NCBI GenBank assembly: GCA_000004695.1
Contig: CM000150.2
Location: forward strand, 2,048,001 to 2,112,000
From: Dictyostelium discoideum
Lineage: Eukaryota
DNA length: 64,000 nucleotides
Direction: 5' to 3'
Below the pieces are notes generated by a model. It saw only the letters and a list, made by a program, of their open reading frames with translations, was not told where the DNA came from and searched no databases. The position numbers and the translations under genes were made by a program. Below are positions 1-25,338 of this stretch, piece by piece; the stretch's first letter is position 1; each line of letters opens with the position of its first letter.

Positions 1-203
1 TAATTCTATACATATACAATACCATCTTATTAGTAAATATCTAAACAAAAAAAAAAAAAAATTCAAATAAAATATTAATTAATAGTATTTATTAAAAGTG
101 ATTTAGTAAATAAAATAAAATATTTAAAAAATAAATAATAAATAATAAAAAAAAAAGGGTATAAAAAAAAAAAAAAAAAAAAACTATTAATTAATAATTT
201 AAC

Positions 204-234
<31 letters not shown>

Positions 235-274
235 CTATTAATTAATAATTTAACAAAAAAAAAAAAAGAAGAAA

Positions 275-646
275 ATGAAATTTATTCAATTATTTTTAGC
301 AGTTTTATTTTGTTTAGTAATTGTTTCAGCAAATCATATTAAAGATGCAACAATTGAATTAAAACAAATTGGTTCATGGATGGAGAATAATCATGCTGTA
401 ACTCAATATTCAGCCACAATTATTAATCATAAAAATCAAGTTTTAAAATCAATTAACATTGCAACTGATTCAACATTTTGTTTAAATGATTCAACATCAT
501 TTTGGAATATTGAAAGACTTTCAAATGGAGATCTAGTTTTACCTGTTGGTCAACCAACCATTGCTGCTCAAAGTTCCTATACATTTTACTTTATCTTAAA
601 AGGTTCAACTCAACCATTCCTTCATGTTATGTCTGTTGTTTATTAA
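275..646 (+). CDS. Small secreted protein of unknown function (N-terminal signal peptide)
   Basis: 123-aa ORF. Hydrophobic N-terminus MKFIQLFLAVLFCLVIVSA, then a polar mature region. A/T-rich promoter-like sequence upstream and a poly-T tract downstream. No family recognised. Confidence 0.45.
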   Translation: MKFIQLFLAVLFCLVIVSANHIKDATIELKQIGSWMENNHAVTQYSATIINHKNQVLKSINIATDSTFCLNDSTSFWNIERLSNGDLVLPVGQPTIAAQSSYTFYFILKGSTQPFLHVMSVVY

Positions 647-941
647 AAAATAATAATAATTTTTAAATAAAATTTTTAACAAGGAATTCCCTTATTAAAA
701 TTTCAAAAAAATATAATTATATTATCATAAATTTTAAACACCACGGTTAGATAGTGATTTAATTTTCTGAAGTGCAAATTGGTTTATTTTATTAATAATT
801 TTTATTTTTTTATTTTTTTTTTTTTTTTTTTTTTTTTTTTATTTTTATTTTTTTTTTCGAACATTAGGATTCGAATTTTTTTTTTTTTTTTTTTTTTTCA
901 TATTTTCAGTTTGTATTGAGATTAAGGTTTTATAATATAAA

Positions 942-1046
942 ATGTCAAAAACTCCAGCTAAACTTGTAGATTGTAGTTCAACCCTCAGCAGAGTTGGTAA
1001 CCACCTCCAAATGGGTGTTGTTGTAAGTTATCAAAATAAATAAATA

Positions 1047-1098
<52 letters not shown>

Positions 1099-2448
1099 TT
1101 AAATTTTTATTTTTATTTTTATTTTTTTTTTAAAAATGATAGGGTATGCCAAATGTTGGTAAAAGTTCATTGTTCAATTTATTATGTAAAATGTCAATTC
1201 CAGCTGAAAATTTCCCATTTTGTACTATTGATCCAAATTTATCACGTTGCGCTGTTCCAGATGAACGTTATACTTGGTTATGTGAACATTGGAAACCAAA
1301 GAGTGAAGTCCCATCTTATTTACAAATCACTGATATTGCTGGTTTAGTTAAAGGTGCTTCAACTGGTGCTGGTCTTGGTAATGCGTATGTATAAAATTAA
1401 AAAAAAAAATTAAAAAAATATCACAATAATAATACTAATACTAATAATACTAATAATACTATAAATATATATATACCACCACAATTATTAGTTTCCTTTC
1501 TCACATTCAACAAGTCGATGGTATTTACCATATGATTCGTGCCTTTGAAAATGATGAAATCATTCATGTTGAAGATTCAGTCGACCCAGTCAGAGATTTA
1601 GATATCATTTCAAAAGAATTAATTGCCAAAGATATTGAATTCACAACTAAAGCTTTAAAAACTTTACAAACCTCTTTAAAAAATGTAAGTTGTTTATTAT
1701 TATTATTATTTAAATACAAAGGTGGTGATTGTAGTGTATTAATATTTTTTTTATTTTTTTATTTTTTTTTTTTATATTTTAGAAAACAATTGATAAAGCT
1801 AAACAAGTTGAACTTGGTACTTATAATAAAGTTTTAGAATTATTAGAATCAGGTAAACATGTAAGATATGGTACTTATTCAAATGCTGAAACTGAACATG
1901 TTCGTGATTTACATTTATTGACATCAAAACCAGCAATTTATTTAATCAATCTTTCTGAAGAAGATTTCATTAGAAAGAAGAATAAATGGTTAGCAAAGAT
2001 TAAAGCATGGGTTGATGAAAATGGTGGTGGTACAATGATTCCAGTTTCAGTAAGTTTTGAAAAAGCTTTATTGGATTTATCTTCAGATGATGAAAGAAAA
2101 GCATATGAAAAAGAAAAAGGTGCAGTTAGTATTATGCCAAAAATCATTAAAACTGGTTACAGCACATTAAATCTCATCAATTTCTTTACATGTGGTAAAG
2201 ATGAAGTTAGAAGTTGGTGTTTACAAAAAGGTAACAAAGCTCCACAAGCTGCTGGTGTCATTCACACTGATTTCGAAAAAGGTTTCATTATGGCTGAAAC
2301 TATGGCTTATTCTGACTTTTTCGAATTAAAATCTGAAGCTGAATGTAAATCAAGAGGAAAATATAGAATGGAAGGTAAAAACTATGAAGTTGTTGATGGT
2401 GATATTATTTTCTTCAAATTCAACGTATCAAATAATAAGAAAAAATAA
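942..2448 (+). CDS. ola1: Obg-like ATPase 1 (OLA1/YchF family P-loop NTPase). Exons 942..1022, 1143..1384, 1492..1684, 1783..2448
   Basis: The spliced translation matches OLA1 end to end. N-terminal block: [41 protein letters not shown], including the G1 P-loop. Middle block: [49 protein letters not shown]-terminal TGS-like block: [20 protein letters not shown]...[10 protein letters not shown]. Introns have GTAAGT/GTATGT donors and AG acceptors, and phases are consistent. Confidence 0.9.
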
Positions 2449-2766
2449 ATAAATAAATTAAAATAAATAAAAAAATAAAAAAAAAAAAAGAATCATTTTC
2501 CAACTTTTTTTTCAAAATAAAATTAATATATATTTAATTATTTAATTTTATTTTTATTACAATTTTTAAAACAATCTCAAAATATAACCTTAATATTGAA
2601 CGCGTTTGTTGTCGAGTTTGATGGTTTCTTTTTTTTTTTTTTGATTTTTTTTTTTTTGATTTTTTTTTTTTTTTTTTTTTAGAGTTTTGTTTAATGGTTC
2701 GCTTTTTTTTTTTTTATTTTTATTATTTTTAATCACTTTTGATCAAAACTCAAAAAAAAAAAAAAA

Positions 2767-3719
2767 ATGACAACAAAAATAGTTGAAGAAGGATATTGGT
2801 TTTCAAAAATCCCTTCAAAAAGATGGGCTGAAAAATTCTTTTTATTCTACAGTCCAGTTTGGATCACCGTATTTTCATTAATCGTTGCAACTGGTGCTTA
2901 TAAAGTAATATTAATAAAAAAAAAAAAAAAAAAAAAAAATAAAATCACTTTATTTGGGAAAACTAATTTTATTTATTTATTTATTTATTTATTTACTTGG
3001 AAAAAAAGAGTTTTTATGATGTTGAATTTTTTATTTTAGGTCTTGTTGTTTCATTGCCATGTGTGATTTATCCATTATTATTCCCATGTGCAGCAGATAA
3101 AGGTAAACCAATTTTAGAGAGATATTGGGTTAAAGCAAATATTTGGATTGCATTATTTGGATTTGTTGGAAATTATTTTTGGACACATTACTTTTTCGTT
3201 TTATTACAAGCAACTTATAGATTTCCAGTTGAATTCAAATTGAATGAGGTACCAGTAATGCTTTATTTTGTAACTCATGCATATTTCATTAGTTATCATG
3301 CTGCAACTACACCAATTTTACGTCGTTATTGGACTGCATTTGGTGGTCGTGATAATCGTACCTTTTTAAAGACTGTTGGTTCAATTTTGATCGTTTGTGC
3401 TATGGCTTATTTCACTGCTTTCATGGAAGCATGGACTATTAGTTCTGTACCATACTATCATATTGAAGATCGTACTAAAATGTATACAATCGGTTCAACT
3501 TTTTACATGTTATACTTTGTAATCTCTTTCCCAATGTTTGCCCGTATTGATGAGACTGGTCCAAAACATAATGAAAAATGGAATATTTCACGTGCTGCTT
3601 TAGAAGGTTTAGGTAGTGCTATGATCGTTTTCATTTTATGTGATTTTTGGAGACTTGCAATTGGTTCATTAAATGGTGAACAAGTTGGTCAAGTTTTTAT
3701 TGGTAAAAGTGGTGTTTAA
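2767..3719 (+). CDS. Cycloeucalenol cycloisomerase (plant CPI1-type sterol pathway enzyme), polytopic membrane protein. Exons 2767..2904, 3009..3719
   Basis: Translation blocks PSKRWAEKFFLFYSPVWIT, RYWVKANIWIALFGFVGNYFWTHYFF, ILRRYWTAFGG and SFPMFARIDE align with Arabidopsis CPI1 (PSKRWGELFFLLYTPFWLT, RYWVKANLWIIVFSYVGNYFWTHYFF). Intron has a GTAATA donor at 2905 and an AG acceptor at 3007-3008, phase 0. Confidence 0.8.
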
Positions 3720-3722
3720 ATG

Positions 3723-3777
<55 letters not shown>

Positions 3778-4353
3778 TACTTTTATTCACTTGATGGATT
3801 AAAAAAAAAAAATAATAATAATAATTTAAATCATTTAAAGAATAATAAAATAATAAAATAAAATTTCTTTTTTTTTCCTAATTCTATCTAAAAAAAATAA
3901 TGTTTCTCTTCCCATCTTTATATTTTTCTGCTTCAACACACCCAACAAACCAACATGGTTAAAAAAAAATTAGTAAAAATTAATTATTAATTTATTAATT
4001 TATTTTAAAAAAAACATCTAACCTCTTAATGATTTAGTAAACTTTTAAATTGTTTTATTTTGTTTTCCTTTTTCTTCTTTAGAATCTTCACTAAATTCAT
4101 TAAAGAATATGGTTAAAAAAAATATATATATATATTTATATACTTTGATTAAATTTATTTATTATACTTTATATAATGACAGAAAATTATGATTTAAATT
4201 CTCAATCTTTATATAATAATTCAAATATTAATATTTTATATAATGAAAAATCAGTTGTTAATACTACTGATTTTATTCATCAATCTCATAAGCAAATACC
4301 CATAATATATCATTTTTTAGTCAACACATTTATATTAATTTATAATAAATAAA

Positions 4354-4722
4354 TTATTCTTCTTTATTTAAATATTCATCTATTAAATGTTTAATAGCCT
4401 TTGTTAAATTATTCATATAATATTTTAACTTTTTTGTTTTATTATTTGGAAATAATATTGTTTTCATAGTTTGAAATGCTATAATTTCTGGATTTAAACC
4501 AGGTTGTAAAAGTGATTTGCCAATTACTAAATCATACTCATTAATTAGTTTGTTAATAGTTGAATATGATAAATTATTGTTGGTGACCCAGGTTTCTGAA
4601 ATATATTTTTCGGTATCTATTTTAAAATTGGTCAAAATGTAAAGTTGATGGCATTTTAAATCAATTATAAACACAGACATTTCTTGATAAATTTTACCTA
4701 AATATATAATATGCTTTAACAT
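4354..4722 (-). CDS. Hypothetical protein (122-aa ORF), possibly part of a decayed or multi-exon gene
   Basis: Only a single ORF. Upstream on the same strand (4723..5075) there are further open stretches in other frames (MLTEEILSFQQQPTEINLSLMDCIKKYLF...) separated by stops. No family recognised. Confidence 0.3.
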   Translation of the reverse strand: MLKHIIYLGKIYQEMSVFIIDLKCHQLYILTNFKIDTEKYISETWVTNNNLSYSTINKLINEYDLVIGKSLLQPGLNPEIIAFQTMKTILFPNNKTKKLKYYMNNLTKAIKHLIDEYLNKEE

Positions 4723-5379
4723 CTTATTTAAATGACGAGTGATAAAGATTTGGATTGATAAAAATTATATCAGGATTTTGAGTTTTTGTCTTTGGAATAA
4801 ATATTTTTAAAATTTTTCATAAATTGATTTAGGTGAATTTAAATCAACAATTGTTGAATTTTAATAAAAGGAATAACACATTGATATAAATAATACGCAT
4901 AAATCAGTATCTGCGTTGGTGAATAAATATTTTTTAATGCAATCCATTAATGATAAATTTATTTCAGTAGGTTGTTGTTGAAAACTTAAAATTTCTTCAG
5001 TTAACATATTAACTTTTTTTTTAGAGAATTAATTTCTTCATTTTCATTTTTTTCTCTTATGAGCTAAGTCTTCCATATTGGAAATCACAAAAAAAAAAAA
5101 ACTTATTATTTAATTAAAAAAAAAAATTAAAAAAAAAACTAATAAAAAATCAAAAAATCAAAAAAAAATTTCCTGGAAAAATAACATCGACAATTAACCG
5201 ATTTTTATTTTGTGGATACCAGTGAATTGATTTATTTTATTTTTTTTTTTTTTTTTAAAAGATATTTATATGTCCACTGAGCATAATAAAAAATTTAAAA
5301 TTGAAAGTTCCTCAAAATTAGAAGGCTATAAAAAAAAAAAATGAATGATAAATAATTAAACTAAAAATAAAATTAAAAC

Positions 5380-7280: not shown

Positions 7281-8126
7281 TTAATTCTTTCTGTATAATT
7301 TCCAATCTTTTTTAGAAAGTTTCTTTAATTTTTGAGTATTATTAATAACTTGAACGACTTCAGATTTTTTAAGATTTTCTTCTTTAATTCTTTTATTTTC
7401 TCTGATTGCATTATGCATAAGTGTTTTATCGAGTTTAGTTTTCTCTTTGATTTCTCTTTCTTTATCTTTCATTCTCTTTAAGTCAATTCTTTGTTTTTGT
7501 TTATTTTCAAATGATTGTTTAAAACCTTTAGATTTAATAGCAGAGTTTAATTTTGATGATGGTGTTTTCCAAACTCTACCTGATACTGGTTTACCTCTAC
7601 TTGGATCAATTTCTTTGATTGTTCTTTTCATTTTATTTACAGTTGGTGTGTTGGTAGTAGTGGTAGTAGTAGTATCATTATTTTGTTCTTCTTTTGCTTT
7701 TGGTACATCTTCTTCTTTTGATGGTTTTGGAGTTGGTGCTGGTAAATCTTTTGTAATAATAACTTCATCGTCAACAATATTTTCAATTGGTTGCTTTTCT
7801 GTGATTACGATATCTTCTTTTTCTTCTGCTTGTTGTTCATTTTCAGTAGTTTTTGGTTGATCAATTGGTGCTGATGGTTGTGGTGTTTCAGTTGATTTTT
7901 TAGTTGCAGCTGGTTTCTTTGCTGAAACTTTTTTACTAACTTTTTTAACTGGTTTTTCAATTGGTTGTTCTACTTGAATTACATCAGTGTCCATTTCAAT
8001 ATTATCATCTTGGTTGGTTTCAGTATCTGGTTTAACTGATTTTCTTGGTTTTCTTATTTTTGTTGACTTTAAAAGAGTCATAAATTGAGTATCTTCAATA
8101 TTTGAGGTTCTTCTTGTTCCTGTCAT
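7281..8126 (-). CDS. Lysine-rich nucleolar-type protein with C-terminal Cgr1 domain (CCDC86/cyclon-like)
   Basis: 281-aa ORF rich in K/E/T. The C-terminus SGRVWKTPSS...KQRIDLKRMKDKEREIKEK...SEVVQVINNTQKLKKLSKKDWK carries the GRVWK and EVVQVI signatures of the Cgr1/CCDC86 family. Confidence 0.65.
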   Translation of the reverse strand: MTGTRRTSNIEDTQFMTLLKSTKIRKPRKSVKPDTETNQDDNIEMDTDVIQVEQPIEKPVKKVSKKVSAKKPAATKKSTETPQPSAPIDQPKTTENEQQAEEKEDIVITEKQPIENIVDDEVIITKDLPAPTPKPSKEEDVPKAKEEQNNDTTTTTTTNTPTVNKMKRTIKEIDPSRGKPVSGRVWKTPSSKLNSAIKSKGFKQSFENKQKQRIDLKRMKDKEREIKEKTKLDKTLMHNAIRENKRIKEENLKKSEVVQVINNTQKLKKLSKKDWKLYRKN

Positions 8127-13951: not shown

Positions 13952-15441
13952 TAATTAGGAAATAATATAACAAAAAAGAAATAAAACATAGAATAATTTT
14001 TTTTAATTTATTTTATAATAATTTATTTTTTAAATTTGTTAAAATTTTTTTGGTTGTAATTGATTTTTGAATTATAATTTCATTTTGATTATTATTAAAA
14101 GATGATGAATTATTATTTGTTAACTGAATTGAATTAATAATATGACCTACCAATTGTAAATTTTTAATTTCATTAACCAAATCAATAATTTCCTTTGCAC
14201 TTTTTAAATTGGTTTTACTTAAAAGATTAAAAGTTGTAACAGAGGTAACACCAAACATTTCCAAATCATGATAAAAAAGTTTCAATAATGTTTAATATTT
14301 CAGAGCAACAGGATCAAATTAAAGTATTGGAATTTAACCCATCATTTATTATTATTGGTCATTGGTATGTGTATATGTATATTATTTTAAAAAATTAATT
14401 TTAATTCTCTAAAATTTATTTTTTAAAATTTATTTTTAGTTTTGGAGATTGTTCGGGTATGATTGGTAATGGAATGTTACATTTACTATAAATTCAATTT
14501 CAAATCAATTATTTCTTCAAAAAATCATATTTTTGCTGGGACGTGGAATATACGAATCATTGGCTGAATTCTTAGTTGGTTTCAAACATTATATAATCAA
14601 CCTACCAAAGGTGGTGGTTTTTAAGTGGAGACGCTGCTTTGTTATTTAAATACATGATCTCAAGATATAATTAAAGTTTTACTAAAGTATAGAAAAAGAA
14701 AGATGTTTGATTGTTAGAAAAGCTATTACATTTTCCAAAATCAAAACATGAAGATTTAGAAATGTTAATTTTCAAATTTTCAAATTTATAATTGTTCAAG
14801 AGACTGATACACAAATTTCTCAAAGTGAATTGATTAGAAAATTTTACCACACAAAAATTCACCAAATTTACCATCCAAATTTACCACATCAGATGACACA
14901 ACTCACAGGTTGTTCATTTGTTGTTCATTTTAGTGATCACCCTAAAAAACAATAAACAGATTAAGATTCCTTAAAATAGGTTAACAAAAATAATACAAAA
15001 GCAATAAAGATGATTGAAACAAATAATGTTTAATTTATTTATTAATGTTTCAAAAGTTATTACAATAGCAGGTATGGATACTAAAATTATAAATCAATGT
15101 CATTCGAATGAATCTTGTGATGGTATCTTAGGTAAAAAAAGTTTTGAGATTGTGGTTTAATCGGTGCAATTAATGATGGAAATAATATATTATTTTCAAT
15201 TAAAGGTTTTAGTTCAAATAGTTATGGTATTGGCAAACGTAGTTTTTGATAAACCATCAACAATTTTTAAACCTGTTGGGCTAGCATTTAAATCAGCTAA
15301 TGGTACCATAGAACCTGATGAAATTTATTATGTTGGGGTTCATGGAACTGGTTTGGTATATTTTAGTCATTGATAATTTGATTTTTGTATTGGCTTTTGT
15401 GATTCAAAGCTTTTTAAGTTTTTTTTTTTTTTTTTTTTTTG

Positions 15442-16547
15442 ATATAAATAAACTATTGTAGTATACAATTAGTATGTTATTTTTATTTATTTATTTTAGG
15501 TTTTTTAGTTTTTGTGAATTTAAAATAGTATGTTATTTTAGATTAGGTAATTAATAATTAATTGGTGGTGTAATTGTTGGAATTGGTTCATTAGTGTTTA
15601 TGCTCCATTCTTTTTTAAATTTTTTGATGGTTTCGGACCATTGGGTTTCTTTTTGAGTTTTTGTGAGGTTGTTTTTAATTGAGTATTGGTTAAAGTTTGA
15701 TAAAGTTCTTGAATATTCCAATCTTATTAGCTTGTGCCATTTTGATTTTAATATATCATAATCTAGTGTTGTGTTGTTTATTTGGTTGTTCCAATTATCA
15801 ATTGATTGAGTTATATTGATGTCAAATAATGATTTGCATAACCATATCCATATTTGGTGAATAACTAATGAGATTATGTTCCAATATGCATGTGTTCTGA
15901 CTAGATCAAGATTTGTGTTTATATAATTCCAGTTGGACCTGTATTTTTTATATTGTGCGTTTTCTGCAAAATGAAAATTAATATTGATAGTTGGATCTGG
16001 TTTAAATGCTTTGTTGTTTGTTTGTGGTTTATAGATGAGTGTGTATAATTTTGTTGTTTGGTTTTTTGTTAGTGACCAGTTTTTGTTTCCATTGCAATTT
16101 TTATATATAAAATATTTTAATTTGTCGTGGTTTATGAAGTTGATTGTGTGCTGACAATTGAAAAACAAATGACCATAGGGATCATTTTTCATTTCATTGT
16201 TGCAAATGGGGCAAACTTTGTTGTGTAGATGATTAATCGGAAGACATCTAGCATGGAATCTTTGCATTGTATCACGGCCTTTTGGATCTTTTAATTTTTG
16301 AATATTGACAAAAAGTTGGTCGTATGTGTATTTCCATAATAGTTGTATTGATTGTTGGTGCGAAGTAAGAAGTAGATCTGAATATTTCTTGCCAATATAG
16401 TCTTTTGATTTGCATTGGTGATTGTTTAGTATTGTCGAGTAGATTTCTTTGAGTGTTGGTGGTAGTGGAATATTATTTGTGTTTAATGTTTGAGAGGGTT
16501 GGTTTTTTGTTAATATTGGTTGTAGGATTTGAACTTTATCTTTTAGC
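15442..16547 (-). mobile_element. 5'-truncated TRE3-like non-LTR retrotransposon fragment (3' part of ORF2 plus 3' UTR and oligo-A), copy 1
   Basis: About 95% identical to 23612..24714. The open frame runs from the truncation point (stop at about 16553) to 15551 and includes a CCHC-like C-terminal motif (CPICNNEM...HLFFNC). A roughly 110-bp 3' UTR ends in A21 on the minus strand (plus 15421-15441). The 5' junction lies 63 bp downstream of the 3' end of tRNA-Val(AAC), on the same strand as the tRNA. Confidence 0.65.
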
Positions 16548-16609: not shown

Positions 16610-16683
16610 ATATTCAGAGCGGGAATCGAACCCACGACCTAATCCGTGTTAAGGATTCGTGATAACCGACTACACCATCCGAA
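16610..16683 (-). tRNA. tRNA-Val (anticodon AAC)
   Basis: Reverse complement gives GTTCGGATGGTGTAGTCGGTTATCACG-AATCC-TTAACAC-GGATT-AGGTC-GTGGG-TTCGATT-CCCGC-TCTGAAT-A. The 7-nt anticodon loop TTAACAC reads AAC. T-loop is GGTTCGATTCC. A T5 pol III terminator follows on the transcribed strand (plus 16601-16605). The sequence is identical to the copy at 51470..51543. Confidence 0.8.
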
Positions 16684-17537
16684 CTAATCGTTATTTTTTA
16701 AAATCTGGACACGTGTGGTCTTCCAATAACCTCGATCTGGCATTAAACGCAAACCTTATAGAATCCTCTTTGAAGCGATCTGAAAAAAGACACAAATTTA
16801 AAAATGATAACACAACCATACTTATCAACAAAAAGCAAATAATAAACAAACTTATAAAAACTCAAGAAGCTTCATATGACAAAACAAATCGAACATTAAC
16901 AAACTAATCAGACTAAGAACCAAGAAGATGAAAAGAAACTAACACAAACAATCTCAAGAGCACTCCAATATTTCAGCAAACAATGGAACTCCCACCCACT
17001 TATACCAATTCATCAATACCACAAACACACTTTTTGATAAAAAAAAATAAAAATAAAAAATAATAATAATAAAAATAACATCAATAATAAAAAAAAAAAA
17101 AACTAAACTAAACTCACCCCCTCTTTTAGAGGTCCTGTAAAAATATTACAAATAAAATGAGATTTAGCATCTTTAGGAAAAGCAACTAATAATTGCATCC
17201 AATTCAAAAAGTTTTTTTTTAATAATTAAACTAGAATAAGTTTTTGGTAAATTTATTTTAGTGAATTTTTGGTAAATCAAAAATAAAATTTTTTTTAATT
17301 TTACAATTTGAATCATCTAATACTTTAAATTTCTATTTTTTTGATAAAATAATATAAACTGGAAATTTCACATCAATATGGTTTAAAATTGGGGTAAATA
17401 TAAAATAAAATAATAAACTTACATTTTCAAATATTTTTTGAGCTTCATCATTTTTAAATTCAATTACATTATAACACCAAATGATTAAAGAATTTGTATT
17501 AAAATATAAAATATATTTTAAAAATAAAAAATATTAT

Positions 17538-18041: not shown

Positions 18042-19379
<1,338 letters not shown>

Positions 19380-19610
19380 TTTTATTTAAAATTTAAACAA
19401 AACAAAGAGAAAAGGTCATATGACCTGTTTTTTTTTTTTTTTTTTTTTTTCTAAATTTTTTTTTTTTTTTTTTAAAAAAATAAATATCTTAATTCAAAAA
19501 AAAAATATAAAAACAATTTTTCTTTTTTTAAAAATCAGTTTTATGTTTTTATACTTTAGCAAACAAATAATACTTTGATTGTTTTAAATTATCTTTTTTT
19601 TTTTTTTTTT

Positions 19611-20170
19611 TTAATATTGATTAATCATAGTTTATCCTTTAAAATTACTTGGATCTTTTGAAAGAGTTAGTTTTAAGTCTTTTGCTTTTTATATATTCTG
19701 GGCTGGCTAGTTTGAACCATTAAGTAAGGTCGAGTATGAAAGCTTTTCAACTTTCGACGGTTCATCTCTGTACAATTGGTCGCAGACCCAAGTCCAGATG
19801 TTGTGAGATATTAGTGCGATTATGTTTCTATATGCGAAGGATTTAGATAGGTCATAGTTTACACATTTATACCCCCATTCGAAGTATTCTTTATGGAACA
19901 CACCTTGCAAACTTGGGATATGAAAAGTTACAGAACTCTAACTACCAAAAGGAGAGCCCTTTAGCTGATGTATTTAATGATGTCTATTCACTCCACACCA
20001 TCTAAGGTTTGCATTGGTTACCTTTTTGTGTAAAGAAGATGCACATTCATAAGGTTATTACGGAAAACAGCATCTATCCACTTCAATATGAACAAAATGC
20101 GAATGGTGAAGGTGATACCGATGATGATGACGATGAGGAGATGTTACATGATGAAGAATATAATAATTTT
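19611..20170 (-). mobile_element. Degenerate remnant related to the TRE3-like ORF2 C-terminus (a different, diverged family member)
   Basis: GC is elevated relative to flanks. The minus-strand ORF 19707..19910 (FHKEYFEWGYKCVNYDLSKSFAYRNIIALISHNIWTWVCDQLY) aligns with the TRE3-like ORF segment HFAENAQYKKYRSNWNYINTNLDLVRTHAYWNIISLVIHQIWIWLCKSLF. The frame is broken by stops upstream. A minus-strand oligo-A (plus T-run 19589..19610) marks a 3' end. Confidence 0.4.
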
Positions 20171-20279
20171 TAATTTTTTAAAAAATTAAAAAGGGGAAAA
20201 AAAAAATAATAAAAAAAAAAAAATAAAACCTTAATTGGTTTTGTTTATGTAATAATCTTTTAAAAAATATATTCTATTA

Positions 20280-20627
20280 TTATTTTTCTTCTTCTTTTGT
20301 TGGAATATCTGTTCTTTTTCGAGAACCAGGAAAATTAAGATCCAAAATATTGACTGTAAAGAGATCTTGAATATTTTTGTCTTGAACTAAATAATCCTCA
20401 CCACTTTGGTAGTGTAATACATCTCTGAATTGAAAAAGAGGTAAGGAACCATCTTCGTTAACTTTGAGTGATTGATAAAGTATTGATGCAGTTTTATACA
20501 TTTCAAGACTTTCTACTACTTCCTTGATACATTCTGCTGTACAATCTTTCCCAAATTCAAATTCCAATAAGTTATCATATTGAAAAAGTTTTTCAGTAAA
20601 ATCTGGGTGGTGGTGGTTACGGTTCAT
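20280..20627 (-). CDS. Conserved-looking hypothetical protein (115 aa), single exon
   Basis: ATG-initiated ORF MNRNHHHPDFTEKLFQYDNLLEFEFGKDCTAECIKEVVESLEMYKTASILYQSLKVNEDGSLPLFQFRDVLHYQSGEDYLVQDKNIQDLFTVNILDLNFPG... The composition is globular. I do not recognise the family. Confidence 0.45.
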   Translation of the reverse strand: MNRNHHHPDFTEKLFQYDNLLEFEFGKDCTAECIKEVVESLEMYKTASILYQSLKVNEDGSLPLFQFRDVLHYQSGEDYLVQDKNIQDLFTVNILDLNFPGSRKRTDIPTKEEEK

Positions 20628-21167
20628 TTTTTTTTTCTCTGTGTCAAAAATGAAAATTATTTGTGTGAATAAAAAATAAAAAAAAAAAAAAAAAATTTTA
20701 AAAAAAAAAAAAATAAATAAAAAAAATAATAAAATAATAACAATGACAACTTAATTTTTTGAGTGAGAAATTATAAATAAATAATAAATAAATTTGTAAA
20801 TTAAAAAAAAAAAATAATAAATAAAAAAATTATTTTTTAATTTTTACCTAATTTACACAAAAACATTAATGTTTTTCTCACCATTTTATCTTTGTATAAA
20901 TTTTTTTTATTTTTTTATTTTATTATATTATACTTCATATAAATAACTATCTCCAAATGAAATTTTTATTAAAAATTAATTTATTGATCTTTTTTTTTTG
21001 TGAATTCCTGTAACTCACATCACTATGTTGGTATTATCGATGACAATTCTATAACTCCAAACATGCAATGGTTTAACGATATTATGTTCATTAGAAGAAA
21101 CGCCAATGGTGCCTGGCCTAGAGTTAATTCTTTTAATTGAAACGGGGTATACTTTGTTTTCGGGAAT

Positions 21168-21746
21168 ATGGCTCCTCATGGATTGACCTTGCTGTATATA
21201 GGTAAAGCATCCCATCAAGATGGGATGGGTTTGTACCACAGAGGTTACTCAGATATAGTTGGTCGCCCAAGGTTTTGGGGGACTCCAAATGCAAGACCAC
21301 TAGAAATGGCAAATGCCCAAATTTTAATGTATTATAGAGGTTTTGATGGTCCAGTTGCTGGTCATGCTGAGTGGTTCCTTTCAGTATTTGGGTGCCCAGA
21401 AAATAGTTTCAACGAGGGTGGTTTAAAGGAATCTCAATTTTGTTATGGTGCAGGTCAATGGAATTTTTTCCATGCAACTGCTCCCGCAGTTAATGTTTGC
21501 CAATATATTATAAATCAAGATCCATCCCCTGGTCTTTTTTTTAGATATCCAAACTATCCATCTGCTCCAAGTATTATAAGAAGAATTGTTGATTGTGAAA
21601 CTGAACGATTACTCGCTGAAGGTCTTTCACTTCAAGTTCCTGGTCTTCAAAATCAAGTGTTAAATCTTCAAAATCAAGTGGAAAATCTTCAAAATGCAAA
21701 CCAACTATTTGCAAACCCCAAACTTCATTACAACAAGAATCATTAA
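21168..21746 (+). CDS. Unknown ORF (192 aa) in a GC-rich island; partner of the downstream YqaJ-like ORF
   Basis: About 40% GC with non-host codon choices (GGG, CCC, CGC). Translation: MAPHGLTLLYIGKASHQDGMGLYHRGYSDIVGRPRFWGTPNARP...YRGFDGPVAGHAEWFLSVFGCPENSFNEGG..., with a C-terminal heptad-like segment LQVPGLQNQVLNLQNQVENLQNANQLF. Its stop at 21744-21746 lies 7 nt before the ATG of the next ORF. No introns. Confidence 0.4.
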   Translation: MAPHGLTLLYIGKASHQDGMGLYHRGYSDIVGRPRFWGTPNARPLEMANAQILMYYRGFDGPVAGHAEWFLSVFGCPENSFNEGGLKESQFCYGAGQWNFFHATAPAVNVCQYIINQDPSPGLFFRYPNYPSAPSIIRRIVDCETERLLAEGLSLQVPGLQNQVLNLQNQVENLQNANQLFANPKLHYNKNH

Positions 21747-21753
21747 AATTACA

Positions 21754-22407
21754 ATGTACATGCAAACCATTATAAAACAATCGAAAAGTATCGATGAAGA
21801 TTTGGTACAAGGAACTAAAAAATGGGAAGAAGCAAGAGAGAAGTATTCTTTAACTGGAAGTAGATTAGCTGCTGCAATTGGAATTGATCCATACACTTCA
21901 CAACATGATTTAAAATTAATATTAGCGAAAAAGAAAACCCCATTCTTTAGTGACTACTGTAAAAAGGCAATGGAACATGGTAAACACCAAGAACCAATAG
22001 CAAGAGAATTTTATTTTAATGAATTGGAGACTTCAATTATCGAAAAGGGTATCTTTCCATTGCCAGGCGACAAAAGAATTGGATGTTCTCCTGATGGGGT
22101 AATTTACACAACAGTACCTGGTAAAGATGGAGTTTTACAGCGTGAAGGAGTTATTGAAATAAAATGTCCACTATCTACCACGAACTTCAGTGGCCTAAAG
22201 AATGGTAGAAAACCTGATGCCTTAGCTAATGCTCAGAAAATACCTCTAGATTACATTCCACAAATATTTGCAAACATGGCATGTACTGGGGCACAATGGT
22301 GTGATTATATATGTTGGGTTCCAGGTGAGGTATACTTTTGTAGAAGGGTATTCTTTGATACAAATGTATTCGTTAGCAAAATTATTTATAGATACACCTT
22401 TAAATGA
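21754..22407 (+). CDS. YqaJ/lambda-exonuclease-like PD-(D/E)XK nuclease (viral or mobile-element type)
   Basis: Motifs in order: W...R...LTGSRLAAAIG, GKHQEPIAREFY, IGCSPDGVIY, GVIEIKCP, IPLDYIPQIFANMACTGAQWCDYICWVPGE. These fit the YqaJ/alkaline-exonuclease fold. GC about 40%, no introns. The ORF track extends it to 21694 via a non-ATG start; the first ATG is 21754. Confidence 0.6.
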   Translation: MYMQTIIKQSKSIDEDLVQGTKKWEEAREKYSLTGSRLAAAIGIDPYTSQHDLKLILAKKKTPFFSDYCKKAMEHGKHQEPIAREFYFNELETSIIEKGIFPLPGDKRIGCSPDGVIYTTVPGKDGVLQREGVIEIKCPLSTTNFSGLKNGRKPDALANAQKIPLDYIPQIFANMACTGAQWCDYICWVPGEVYFCRRVFFDTNVFVSKIIYRYTFK

Positions 22408-22559
22408 AATACCTTAAAGAATGAAAAAACATTAATAATAAATACATTACTCTTACAGAAACTTAAAGTTTTAAATCCACACCTAAATATTCATGTACGA
22501 ACTAAATTATCATATAGAAAAAAAGTTATAAAAAAAAATAATAAAAAATTTCGTTGATT

Positions 22560-23530
22560 GGTGGGGTGTTAATGTTGTTTTTTGGTGGTTGATTGTTTTT
22601 GTTAATATTTAGGGTTTGTGAGAGCATTTTTTATAGTTGTTGCCATATCAGAATTTTTTGCATGTTGAATTTTGTGTTTAGTGACACTACGTGTTGCAGC
22701 TTTGATATATCTTGTGATACCAGATGGTTGTTCGATCTTTTGGTCTACAATGTTGTGTGTGTGATCAATTAGATGATATGTTATAATGTAGCTTTTAAAC
22801 GCAACAGCATATGAGTATGTGACAGTAAATGATTCAATTGATGTACAACTGGTGAATTTGGTGAGGTTGTTTATAATTGCATCATTTGCAAGTTTGGGTG
22901 AGTACGTTTGAATGAATGTTTTAATGATTGCATAATCATTTGATGATATTTCGAATCTATAGTTGAGTTTGTCGATATTTAGTGCAAGTTGGTTTTGAAG
23001 GTTGATTATTGAAGTTAATTTATCAACGTTGCAATTTACGAAGGCAGTTGCACTAATTATTTTAAATGCTGATGGCGACAGTATATCTTCGAAGAGTTTG
23101 TGAATGTTTTTGTGAATTTGTTGGATTCTTGTGTCATCTTTAGAGGCTAATTCTTCACGGATGTATGGTTGATTAAAGTAACACTTAATGTTGATGGTGT
23201 TATTGTTTTTTTCTAAGAAGGAGAGTGGTCTTGTGATTGATGGAGGTGCAATGATATCTAATTGATTATCAAGTCCTTTGTTAAGTGAGAATTTGTTTGT
23301 TGGGGTTTGTTTTTTAGGTGTGCCGATTTTTGCACTTTTGTTTTTTGTTGTTCAGGTTGTGGAGGTATTATTTGTATTGGTTGTGTCGTTATCTGTATGA
23401 TTTGACTGTAATTCAGTTGAGTGATCATCAGCCATTGTTGAAAAGTATATAGGACGATAGCCCTTGCTTTACTGAGCAAAAATAGGGTAAAATTAAGAGG
23501 AATGAATGTGGTGAAGACATAGCAGTGATT
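22560..23530 (-). mobile_element. Retroelement ORF remnant (frameshifted, no ATG) of a tRNA-associated non-LTR element family
   Basis: Strong G/T skew on plus, as on the TRE3-like copies. The minus-strand frame is open for about 230 codons without an ATG, so the ORF track missed it. It begins DIIAPPSITRPLSFLEKNNNTINIKCYFNQPYIREELASKDDTRIQQIHKNIHKLFEDIL, continues through ...TYHLIDHTHNIVDQKIEQPSGITRYIKAATR..., ends at a stop near 22614, and is joined by a frameshift to ORF 23258..23479. Confidence 0.45.
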
Positions 23531-23611
23531 TATTTTTATATGAATAAATTCTTGTTTATTTCTTTGCTTCGTTACTTTTTAAAAATTAATTGGTTTAAAT
23601 ATTAATTTGAT

Positions 23612-25215
23612 ATAAAAAAACTATTGTAGTATACAATTAGTATGTTTTTTTATTTATTTATTTTAGGTTTTTTAGTTTTTGTTAATTTAAAATGGTATGT
23701 TATTTTAGATTAGGTAATTAATAATTAATTGGTGGTGTAATTGTTGGAATTGGTTCATTTGTGTTTATGCTCCATTCTTTTTTAAATTTTTTGATGGTTT
23801 CGGACCATTGGGTTTCTTTTTGAGTTTTTGTGAGGTTGTTTTTAATTGAGTATTGGTTAAAGTTTGATAATGTTCTTGAATATTCCAATCTTATTAGCTT
23901 GTGCCATTTTGATTTTAATATATCATAATCTAGTGTTGTGTTGTTTATTTGGTTGTTCCAATTGTCAATTGATTGAGTTATATTGATGTCAAATAATGAT
24001 TTGCATAACCAGATCCATATTTGGTGAATAACTAATGAGATTATGTTCCAATATGCATGTGTTCTGACTAGATCAAGATTTGTGTTTATATAATTCCAGT
24101 TGGACCTGTATTTTTTATATTGTGCGTTTTCTGCAAAATGAAAATTAATATTGATAGTTGGATCTGGTTTAAATACTTTGTTGTTTGTTTGTGGTTTATA
24201 AATGTGTGTGTATAATTTTGTTGTTTGGTTTTTTGTTAGTGACCAGTTTTTGTTTCCATTGCAATTTTTATATATAAAATATTTTAATTTGTCGTGGTTT
24301 ATGAAGTTGATTGTGTGCTGACAATTGAAAAACAAATGACCATAGGGATCATTATTCATTTCATTGTTGCAAATGGGGCAAACTTTGTTGTGTAGATGAT
24401 TAATCGGAAGACATCTAGCATGGAATCTTTGCATTGTATCACGGCCTTTTGGATCTTTTAATTTTTGAATTTTGACAAAAAGTTGGTCGTATGTGTATTT
24501 CCATAATAGTTGTATTGATTGTTGGTGCGAAGTAAGAAGTAGATCTGAATATTTCTTGCCAATATAGTCTTTTGATTTACATTGGTGATTGTTGAGTATT
24601 GTCGAGTAGATTTCTTTGAGTGTTGGTGGTAGTGGAATATTATTTGTGGTTAATGTTTGAGAGGTTTGATTTTTTATTAATATTGGTTGTAGGATTTGAA
24701 CTTTATCTTTTAGATGTCCAATTTGAGTTGCATAGTTTTCCCATTCTTTTTTGATTTTTATAAGGTATGGAGAAGAGATTGATTTGTTGATGATTTGATC
24801 CATCCAACTTATCATGTATATTGAATTATTTGCAGATTTATGCATTTGTAAAAAACTGTATTTTTACAAATGCATAAATCTGTTGTATATCCAAATCTTT
24901 TGAGCAACTTGTCGTAATTGTATATTCCACATACCCCAACCACCTTCTTTTAATGGTTTTAATGATCTATCATAACACATCAAAGGTATTTTTGCACGTG
25001 AATGGATGGTTGATGTGTTATTTTCAATGGAATTGATATTGAGAGTTGGTGATTCAGAATTTGCGGGAGAATTCATAAACCATGAGATTAATTTATTAAT
25101 TTGAATTTCTTCATCTTTTGTAAATTCTTCAAGGTATGATAAATATGTTATTGGTGATAGTGAGTAGGTGTTTATGATGGTTGTTTTTGTTTTTAATGTT
25201 GTGCCACTAGTTTTC
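23612..25215 (-). mobile_element. 5'-truncated TRE3-like non-LTR retrotransposon fragment (ORF2 3' region plus 3' UTR), copy 2
   Basis: About 95% identical to copy 1 over 1.1 kb and extends about 500 bp further 5'. The open frame runs from about 25215 to 23718 except for one 30-nt palindromic insertion. It has the same CCHC-like C-terminus. The 5' junction is 50 bp downstream of tRNA-Val(TAC), same strand. The 3' end is ...CTACAATAGTTTTTTTATATC. Confidence 0.7.
24833..24882. repeat. Perfect 22-bp inverted repeat with 6-bp spacer (hairpin/palindrome) interrupting the retroelement ORF
   Basis: cagatttatgcatttgtaaaaa-actgta-tttttacaaatgcataaatctg. It supplies the TAA that ends the upstream ORF (stop at 24864..24866) and the ATG of the downstream ORF (24843..24845). 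Deleting 30 nt restores one continuous frame (...NRFMHKSANNSIYMISW...). Confidence 0.9.
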
Positions 25216-25264: not shown

Positions 25265-25338
25265 TGATCCGACCGAGGATCGAACTCGAGACCTGTTGCG
25301 TGTAAAGCAACCGTGATAACCGACTACACCATCCGACC
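25265..25338 (-). tRNA. tRNA-Val (anticodon TAC)
   Basis: Reverse complement gives GGTCGGATGGTGTAGTCGGTTATCACG-GTTGC-TTTACAC-GCAAC-AGGTC-TCGAG-TTCGATC-CTCGG-TCGGATC-A. Anticodon loop TTTACAC reads TAC. A T8 terminator follows on the transcribed strand (plus A-run 25252..25259). One G-G mismatch in my acceptor-stem pairing, so exact ends are +/-1. Confidence 0.75.

Follow-up and report, generated by a model that had tools for sequence, protein, structure and literature searches.

Yaravirus, a member of the Mriyaviricetes, infects Acanthamoeba, an amoebozoan. Capsid genes are known from the genomes of Evosea, and Polintons, which are not the element described here, have been reported in D. fasciculatum and P. 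pallidum. Insertions of double-jelly-roll (DJR) viruses, comprising Polinton-like viruses (PLVs), virophages and fragments of nucleocytoplasmic large DNA viruses (NCLDVs), occur in protist genomes, including those of Amoebozoa (Evosea) (PMC10120064, Bellas et al. 2023). The Mriyaviricetes are giant-virus relatives of 35-45 kb that encode a DJR major capsid protein (MCP), VLTF3, an archaeo-eukaryotic primase (AEP) and a stand-alone PD-(D/E)XK nuclease, the last being homologous to YqaJ, of apparent phage origin and not orthologous to the YqaJ of NCLDVs (PMC11253617, Yutin et al. 2024). The YqaJ-like recombinase of NCLDVs (NCVOG1192) has an uncertain role and was probably acquired from phages (PMC3493329, Yutin & Koonin 2012). 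Here we analyse a YqaJ nuclease gene of the social amoeba Dictyostelium discoideum and the GC-rich island that contains it, within a 64-kb stretch of chromosome 1 (AX4 type; GenBank assembly GCA_000004695.1, contig CM000150.2, positions 2,048,001 to 2,112,000), hereafter the window, whose own coordinates are used throughout. Our analysis indicates, with a probability of about 0.72, that an endogenous viral element left this island behind as a dead fragment, and that its two genes are not a functioning pair.

The paired open reading frames

The island holds two plus-strand open reading frames (ORFs), at 21168-21746 (ORF1) and 21754-22407 (ORF2), with 7 nt between the stop codon of the first and the ATG of the second. 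A preliminary description of the window had read them as an operon- or polycistron-like pair, in which an intact nuclease might be accompanied by an annealing protein. The element-derived block to which they belong is larger than the span given there (21000-22500), running from 19847 or 19901 to 22552: the sequence repeated at the DNA level covers 19901-22552, and the remnant of a neighbouring pseudogene starts at 19847. Elsewhere in the 64-kb window, no sequence is related to the multi-copy unit from which the block comes. The features of the block are as follows, with gene families from ORF clustering labelled C and compared loci labelled L:

19847-20170, plus strand: C7-family pseudogene fragment, 5'-truncated, with one in-frame stop; left end of the block
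20283-20627, minus strand: C3-family ORF of 115 aa, an exact match to the AX4 gene model DDB_G0268772
20957-21716, plus strand: ORF1-family pseudogene with its native ATG at 20957, from alignments and translations against L001 and L003
21168-21746, plus strand: ORF1 remnant ORF, equal to the AX4 gene model DDB_G0268984
21713-21716, plus strand: deletion junction with a 4-bp AAAC microhomology, leading from ORF1 (after ...NANQLFAN) to the YqaJ 5' leader
21754-22407, plus strand: ORF2, a YqaJ/lambda-exonuclease-type PD-(D/E)XK nuclease ORF of 217 aa (Pfam PF09588)
22408-22552, plus strand: frameshifted remnant of the YqaJ tail and 3' end; right end of the block, against a TRE-like retroelement

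Alignment to related loci revealed how the two frames came to be neighbours. In blastn comparisons, positions 20014-21716 correspond to the ORF1 region of L001 (8770-10545) and positions 21713-22545 to its YqaJ region (15512-16361), two pieces that lie 5 kb apart in that locus. Against L003, L004 and L005 the alignment again breaks at 21713/21716, with 4-9 kb separating the two pieces or with their order changed. The window sequence tracks ORF1 as far as ...GCAAAC and continues in the YqaJ leader, with the common AAAC as the crossover. Missing relative to L001 and L013 are approximately 4.7-5 kb, comprising the C-terminus of ORF1, C4, (C19, C5), a nucleoside kinase gene (dNK) and a PrimPol-type primase gene. 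The ORF1-YqaJ junction is present at none of the five other loci, and the fused locus recurs in another D. discoideum assembly (P0068).

The truncated ORF1 has been placed 37 bp upstream of the YqaJ ATG. Since the deletion its frame extends into the YqaJ leader, out of register with the YqaJ ORF (PKLHYNKNH*), and the 7-nt spacing results from this read-through. The window is the deleted form, because all other copies of ORF1 continue for a further ~230-260 residues. The two same-strand frames and their narrow gap are therefore as first described, but it was the deletion of about 5 kb that made the spacing; the apparently operon-like pair is a deletion artefact and not a working recombination module. 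Synonymous divergence (dS) between the window and L001 is 0.10 for ORF1 (21141-21716) but 0.43 for YqaJ (21754-22365), and the two halves of the block therefore differ in history, through recombination or gene conversion among copies.

ORF1 cannot be retained as an intact gene. Its frame reaches upstream to the ATG at 20957, and 20957-~21020 encodes a signal-peptide-like N-terminus (MKFLLKINLLIFFF...). This frame is broken by a +1 T frameshift in the T-run at 20990-20999 (10 T, against 9 in L001 and L003) and by an in-frame TGA at 21138-21140, which has replaced GGG. The deletion removed the C-terminal ~230-260 residues, about two-thirds of the gene, which in all other copies comprise a coiled coil, a Gly-rich stretch and a Cys-rich domain.

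Homologues of ORF1 occur in many copies and in Dictyostelium only. A full-sensitivity HMMER search with a profile of the N-terminal domain retrieved 10 proteins from 1.84 billion representatives, nine of them short dictyostelid-type relatives and the remaining one a spurious repeat protein (P0046). The ratio of nonsynonymous to synonymous substitution rates (dN/dS) among ORF1 copies is 0.7-1.4. Neither ORF1 nor its intact relatives matched any Pfam family at E-values up to 10, ERF, RecT and Rad52 included; PDB sequence and profile searches returned no match, and the AF2 model was uninformative. With these searches empty, and with signal-peptide-like N-termini in a family confined to dictyostelids, we rejected the proposed role of ORF1 as a single-strand annealing protein (SSAP). 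The N-terminal domain of ORF1 and C5 has an attractive GIY-YIG nuclease motif, for which profile and structural comparisons gave no support. Fast-evolving and rich in Cys and Gly, the ORF1-family proteins were probably surface or host-interaction proteins in the parental virus.

ORF2 corresponds to the AX4 gene model DDB_G0269080 (UniProt Q55ES1, 'YqaJ viral recombinase domain-containing protein'), from which it differs at the 3' end. Its identification as a YqaJ nuclease is upheld by a full-length match to PF09588 (E=7.2e-38, 130.6 bits against a cut-off of 22, model positions 1-150 of 150) and by the catalytic motif CSPDG...VIEIKCP, which is invariant in all copies, including the 50%-identical protein of L002; a PHROG RecE-like exonuclease also matches (E=3.1e-18). 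The nuclease had been called intact, which is true of its catalytic core but not of the protein as a whole. A 14-bp deletion after 22366 brings a premature stop at 22407, a second deletion, of 1 bp, follows 22413, and tblastn similarity to YqaJ runs on to 22506 in another frame. The C-terminal tail of ~55 residues, conserved in all relatives (families A and B), even in the 50%-identical one, is thus destroyed.

YqaJ homologues are also multi-copy in Dictyostelium, the window protein having 91-98% identity to other copies of the D. discoideum group and 50% to the family-B copy. Between divergent copies dN/dS is 0.09-0.16 at a dS of ~0.4, a sign of purifying selection that implies descent from functional (replicating) sources and local decay afterwards; such decay is seen as stops in L001 and L005. 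At present the locus most likely does nothing, or at most gives a tail-less putative nuclease.

The multi-copy unit in related genomes

The unit from which the block derives has left several decayed copies in the genomes of D. discoideum (chr1, chr2 and chr5 of AX4, and those of further strains), D. cf. discoideum, D. dimigraforme and D. citrinum. We compared six related loci (L001, L003, L004, L005, L013 and L014), drawn from D. cf. discoideum, D. dimigraforme and another D. discoideum assembly. ORF clustering gave the recurring order C7, C3(-), ORF1, C4, (C19(-), C5), dNK(-), PrimPol-type primase, YqaJ, C6, C18/C8(-), C11(-). The primase profile matches human PrimPol (5L2X, E=4.5e-16), and the protein keeps the AEP motifs DxD, SxH and D..R..R together with a zinc-finger-like C-terminus. 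Copies sit among ordinary host genes and vary in content and arrangement, and every copy of the window's family that we compared is truncated or rearranged.

Both ends of the window copy are truncations, with everything left of the middle of C7 and right of YqaJ lost relative to the unit. On the left, the C7 fragment (19847-20170) has 54% amino acid identity to L001 8471-8926. Its identity to L016 3590-4129, a gene that shares a 17-kb contig with a predicted capsid gene, is 43% (E=1.6e-18). On the right, the block stops at 22552, past which L001, L004 and L005 stay homologous to one another and a minus-strand TRE-like retroelement begins in the window. Within 19300-23200 the only repeats flanking the block are A/T runs, and terminal inverted repeats are lacking.

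In the related loci, C3 always lies upstream of and divergent from ORF1. Its 90%-identity cluster includes sequences from D. discoideum (chr1, chr2 and chr5), D. citrinum, D. dimigraforme and D. cf. discoideum. The window copy of C3 (DDB_G0268772) is unusually conserved, with 90-96% identity among the copies of these four taxa, and it is intact whereas the neighbouring genes are pseudogenes.

The D. dimigraforme genome contains several copies of PrimPol, dNK, ORF1-family, C3 and C5 genes within ~70 gene models (ACTA71_005963-006030) near a contig end, and at L003 (JBTAPM010000037.1, 1278388-1299616) the start of another unit comes directly after the unit. This arrangement suggests tandem or clustered integration. 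At L001, in D. cf. discoideum, two DDE_Tnp_4 (Harbinger/PIF-type) transposase genes (1-3721) lie a few kb upstream of the unit; being outside the block common to the other loci, they are probably genes of a transposon with no relation to the unit.

A relative with a putative capsid gene

A divergent, fully open version of the block was found on a 57,978-bp contig of D. cf. discoideum (JBTAPH010000006.1; L002, L015 and L018), in an element spanning at least 28 kb. Its block comprises dNK(-), PrimPol, YqaJ, a 337-aa gene, C18/C8(-) and C11(-), all as intact ORFs. Five of these genes are collinear homologues of those in the window's family (E from 1e-17 to 1e-74), with amino acid identities of 28% for dNK, 26% for PrimPol, 45-50% for YqaJ, 36% for C8 and 38% for C11.

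Fourteen kb beyond this block lies the gene for a 410-aa putative capsid protein (P0061), next to four tandem small paralogues. The AF2 model of P0061 retrieves almost solely DJR MCPs (69 BFVD matches at E<=1e-3, the best at 4e-11), and homologues of the protein are encoded by Acytostelium subglobosum, by a Logan contig of 17 kb and by further assemblies of D. discoideum. This low-confidence model would identify P0061 as a putative DJR MCP. On the 17-kb contig L016, the putative capsid gene and its neighbours occur together with a gene homologous to C7 of the window. The relative also has a weak VLTF3-like match (22.5 bits, against a cut-off of 25), and C11 (167 aa, beta-rich) is a candidate penton; Pfam recognised no packaging ATPase (A32/FtsK-HerA) and no penton within its ~28 kb. 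Because the viral segment ends at a DIRS-1-like fragment, we regard it as integrated.

Other genes of the relative offer further candidates. The four tandem paralogues adjoining the capsid gene (L015 16509-18616; 152-176 aa; MTSVYGDLILQDGAKVIDKSG...) have a homologue at L016 257-763(-) and no Pfam match, and could be spike, fibre or penton-associated proteins. L018 encodes a 178-aa protein with the HUH-like motifs FLLTINT / HSHTVI / YIRK at 3440-3976(-), and at 4612-4971(-) a 119-aa protein with a RuvC/poxvirus-A22-like start (IIGIDPGIKNLG ... IIIIEKQ); both are motif-level candidates, with no match in Pfam or among PDB sequences, for gene types that are hallmarks of mriyaviruses. A tyrosine recombinase (Phage_integrase) match at L018 873-1489 was rejected as a viral integrase, as it is the C-terminus of a DIRS-1-like retrotransposon beside a reverse-transcriptase motif.

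Composition and genomic setting

The island is compositionally foreign, as several comparisons support. Its GC content over 21000-22500 is 35.5%, against a window mean of 22.2% (standard deviation 4.3%, 1.5-kb windows), and it ranks first among 625 windows of 1.5 kb. It is thus the most GC-rich block, as had been noticed, although the ~40% reported for this span is too high, 41-42% being reached only in local peaks at 21000-21450. The GC content at third codon positions (GC3) is 0.23-0.24 for ORF1 and ORF2, compared with 0.07-0.16 for host genes of the same window, in agreement with the non-host codon usage proposed earlier; a neighbouring retroelement ORF has a similar value (0.29). Farther away, 7284-8126 on the minus strand is an exact match to the gene model DDB_G0268762.

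The surroundings are also as first described, with tRNA-Val genes nearby and pieces of TRE-like (tRNA-targeted) retroelements on the flanks of the block. The tRNA genes are:

16611-16684, minus strand: first tRNA-Val gene
25265-25338, minus strand: second tRNA-Val gene

The TRE-like sequences on either side are separately repeated, lie on the opposite strand and share no similarity with the block, confirming that the island is not part of the TRE retroelements. Two TRE-like copies of ~1.1 kb (15438-16546 and 23606-24713) are 98% identical and represent the 3' part of a non-LTR retroelement, both on the minus strand and each 3' of a different tRNA-Val gene. A more diverged piece of the same TRE-like ORF family, at 19710-19937(-), abuts the left end of the block.

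Origin and decay of the block

These observations are consistent with the derivation of the unit from a DJR-capsid DNA virus (Bamfordvirae), an origin indicated by the capsid-linked relatives and one that we infer, through homology to them, for the window copy. The preliminary description had offered two candidate origins, an undescribed DNA transposon and a phage- or giant-virus-like recombination module. The giant-virus-like candidate came closest, as there is a collinear relative with a predicted capsid gene, but no working recombination module remains. In the parental virus, to judge from what is known of the family, YqaJ would have been a 5'-3' exonuclease resecting the ends of double-stranded DNA, for recombination-dependent replication or concatemer processing, and would have acted alongside the primase and the nucleoside kinase as a replication block. 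The window copy has five lesions. It has lost everything left of the middle of C7 and everything right of YqaJ, where the TRE-type retroelement now abuts. A microhomology-mediated internal deletion of ~5 kb has fused the truncated ORF1 to the YqaJ leader. ORF1 has gained its frameshift and nonsense codon, and the YqaJ tail its two frameshifting deletions.

Several points weigh against a dead viral fragment. The YqaJ core is still open over 204 codons and is annotated as a gene, so that residual function is possible. Capsid, packaging ATPase, polymerase and integrase genes were not seen in any of the six loci of the window's own family, and the viral assignment leans on homology and synteny with a relative of 25-50% identity. 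In that relative, the Pfam matches of VLTF3, dNK and Prim-pol fall below the curated cut-offs, and the capsid model of P0061 is of low confidence (pLDDT 48.6; TM-scores 0.2-0.33). The 58-kb contig is chromosomal, with the DIRS-1-like fragment at one side, and a ~2.9-kb AT-rich stretch without called genes splits the YqaJ block from the capsid block; the two could in principle be separate insertions. Searches for free-virus relatives with the capsid alignment, in IMG/VR and one metagenome scan, returned none, and an IMG/VR scan with the PrimPol alignment gave no match; with YqaJ, IMG/VR yielded only contigs of 24-30% identity.

The absence of virion genes from these six loci would also be consistent with a family of DNA transposons of non-viral origin, such as one that replicates itself by means of PrimPol and YqaJ, as would the multi-copy, dispersed distribution of the family, its differences in location between genomes and its variable, decayed structure. 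However, no transposase or integrase domain was detected in any scanned ORF of the unit, the flanks show only A/T-run repeats and no terminal inverted repeats, and the DDE_Tnp_4 genes of L001 fall outside the shared block. Five genes are, in addition, collinear with the capsid-encoding element. We therefore consider the transposon fragment suggested at the outset unlikely. Segmental duplication and decay of an ordinary lineage-specific host gene cluster, neither mobile nor viral, might explain why the ORF1 family is confined to dictyostelids, why PrimPol and dNK have cellular homologues and why some copies stand between normal host genes. The preliminary description had named ordinary host-like homologues across dictyostelids as evidence against its reading; homologues do exist in several Dictyostelium species, but they are multi-copy, decayed copies of an element and not ordinary genes of the host. 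GC3 in the block is two- to three-fold higher than that of host genes, copy number, positions and arrangement vary among closely related genomes, and members of the gene families share contigs with a predicted capsid gene. This origin is distinctly unlikely.

Retention of the pair by the host as a functional recombination module, with the exonuclease and its partner co-expressed, appears highly improbable, even though both ORFs are AX4 gene models and the YqaJ core is open with all Pfam positions and the D...EIK motif. The adjacency of the two genes is a deletion junction of the window lineage, missing from all five other loci, and ORF1 is truncated, frameshifted and nonsense-bearing, with no SSAP signature and a dN/dS of ~1. 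The YqaJ tail, conserved between 50%-identical relatives, has been destroyed. Polycistrons are, to our knowledge, not used in Dictyostelium, which also counts against such a module. The arrangement in phages would favour it, as the nearest phage YqaJ genes lie directly downstream of, and overlap, the gene of an ERF annealing protein. The same affinity raises the question of direct horizontal transfer of YqaJ from a bacteriophage or bacterium to the amoeba, without a eukaryotic virus: the closest non-dictyostelid proteins (28-36% identity) are encoded on phage-like contigs among genes for ERF, tail proteins and integrase, and bacteria are the food of Dictyostelium. Against this, every copy, that of the capsid-encoding relative among them, has YqaJ within a conserved block of eukaryote style (dNK, PrimPol, YqaJ, C8, C11). 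Moreover, a phage-like affinity would be equally expected under a phage-to-virus-to-host route, because the YqaJ and PD-(D/E)XK nucleases of NCLDVs and mriyaviruses are themselves thought to be phage-derived (PMC3493329, PMC11253617). We judge direct transfer to be no more probable than a duplicated host gene cluster, and an endogenous viral element remains our preferred explanation.

Implications

The lineage behind the island appears to be undescribed: in the literature searched, we found no account of the element, and no paper that names these AX4 gene models or reports YqaJ in a Dictyostelium element. The island itself is a dead relic whose ORFs are already catalogued as hypothetical AX4 genes, and its value is that of a pointer. 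Through it, 'hypothetical' genes dispersed over three chromosomes can be recognised as parts of a single virus-derived unit, namely DDB_G0268772, DDB_G0268984 and DDB_G0269080 on chr1, DDB_G0275481 and DDB_G0275721 on chr2, and DDB_G0291087 on chr5, and it leads to larger, open-reading copies beside a predicted capsid gene in closely related wild genomes. For annotation, DDB_G0268984 and DDB_G0269080 should be flagged as repeat pseudogene fragments and not as independent genes.

A broader proposal, possible although short of probable, is that the D. discoideum complex, and Acytostelium through its capsid homologue, has endogenised undescribed small DJR DNA viruses, mriyavirus- or PLV-like, with a dNK-PrimPol-YqaJ block and expanded signal-peptide-like families, and that near-intact copies in wild isolates may be active. 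We know of no dictyostelid virus isolated so far. If the proposal is true, it would give social amoebae their first known virus lineage, and that in a model host open to genetic work. Such a capsid-encoding endogenous lineage would open questions of virus-host interaction and antiviral defence in a model organism, and would extend the small giant-virus relatives by a branch from Amoebozoa.

Comparison with known systems

The adjacency of a YqaJ gene to a second ORF first recalls the Red/RecET modules of phages, with which the window shares a nuclease of the same family (PF09588) and whose ERF-YqaJ pairs include its nearest non-dictyostelid relatives. In contrast to these modules, the upstream ORF is no annealing protein and the adjacency is a deletion artefact, and none of the unit's copies examined yielded an SSAP. 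Two mobile element types were rejected. Polintons/Mavericks would carry a protein-primed PolB and an RVE integrase, which occur in none of the ORFs scanned, and a cut-and-paste DNA transposon is contradicted by the lack of a transposase in the shared block and by inverted repeats that consist of A/T runs only.

Among eukaryotic viruses, the NCLDVs likewise have a YqaJ-family nuclease (NCVOG1192) in the replication and repair gene set of a large DNA virus. The present element is, however, much smaller, and apart from the predicted MCP fold and the weak VLTF3 match no NCLDV core genes were found. Endogenous viral elements of protists resemble it in their multi-copy, decaying insertions, foreign composition, many ORFans and AEP-type primase, and in the predicted DJR capsid of the more intact relatives; they differ in that packaging ATPase, penton, protease, protein-primed PolB and integrase were not identified here, and the window copy is a 2.7-kb remnant. 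We found no description among PLVs, virophages or NCLDVs of either a dNK-PrimPol-YqaJ block or an ORF1 family with signal-peptide-like N-termini. With respect to the Mriyaviricetes, the defining HUH endonuclease, A32 ATPase, VLTF2 and RuvC were not demonstrated in the relative, HUH and RuvC being represented by motif-level candidates only. The features in common with this class are the 410-aa predicted DJR MCP of the relative, its weak VLTF3-like match, its PrimPol and its phage-like YqaJ.

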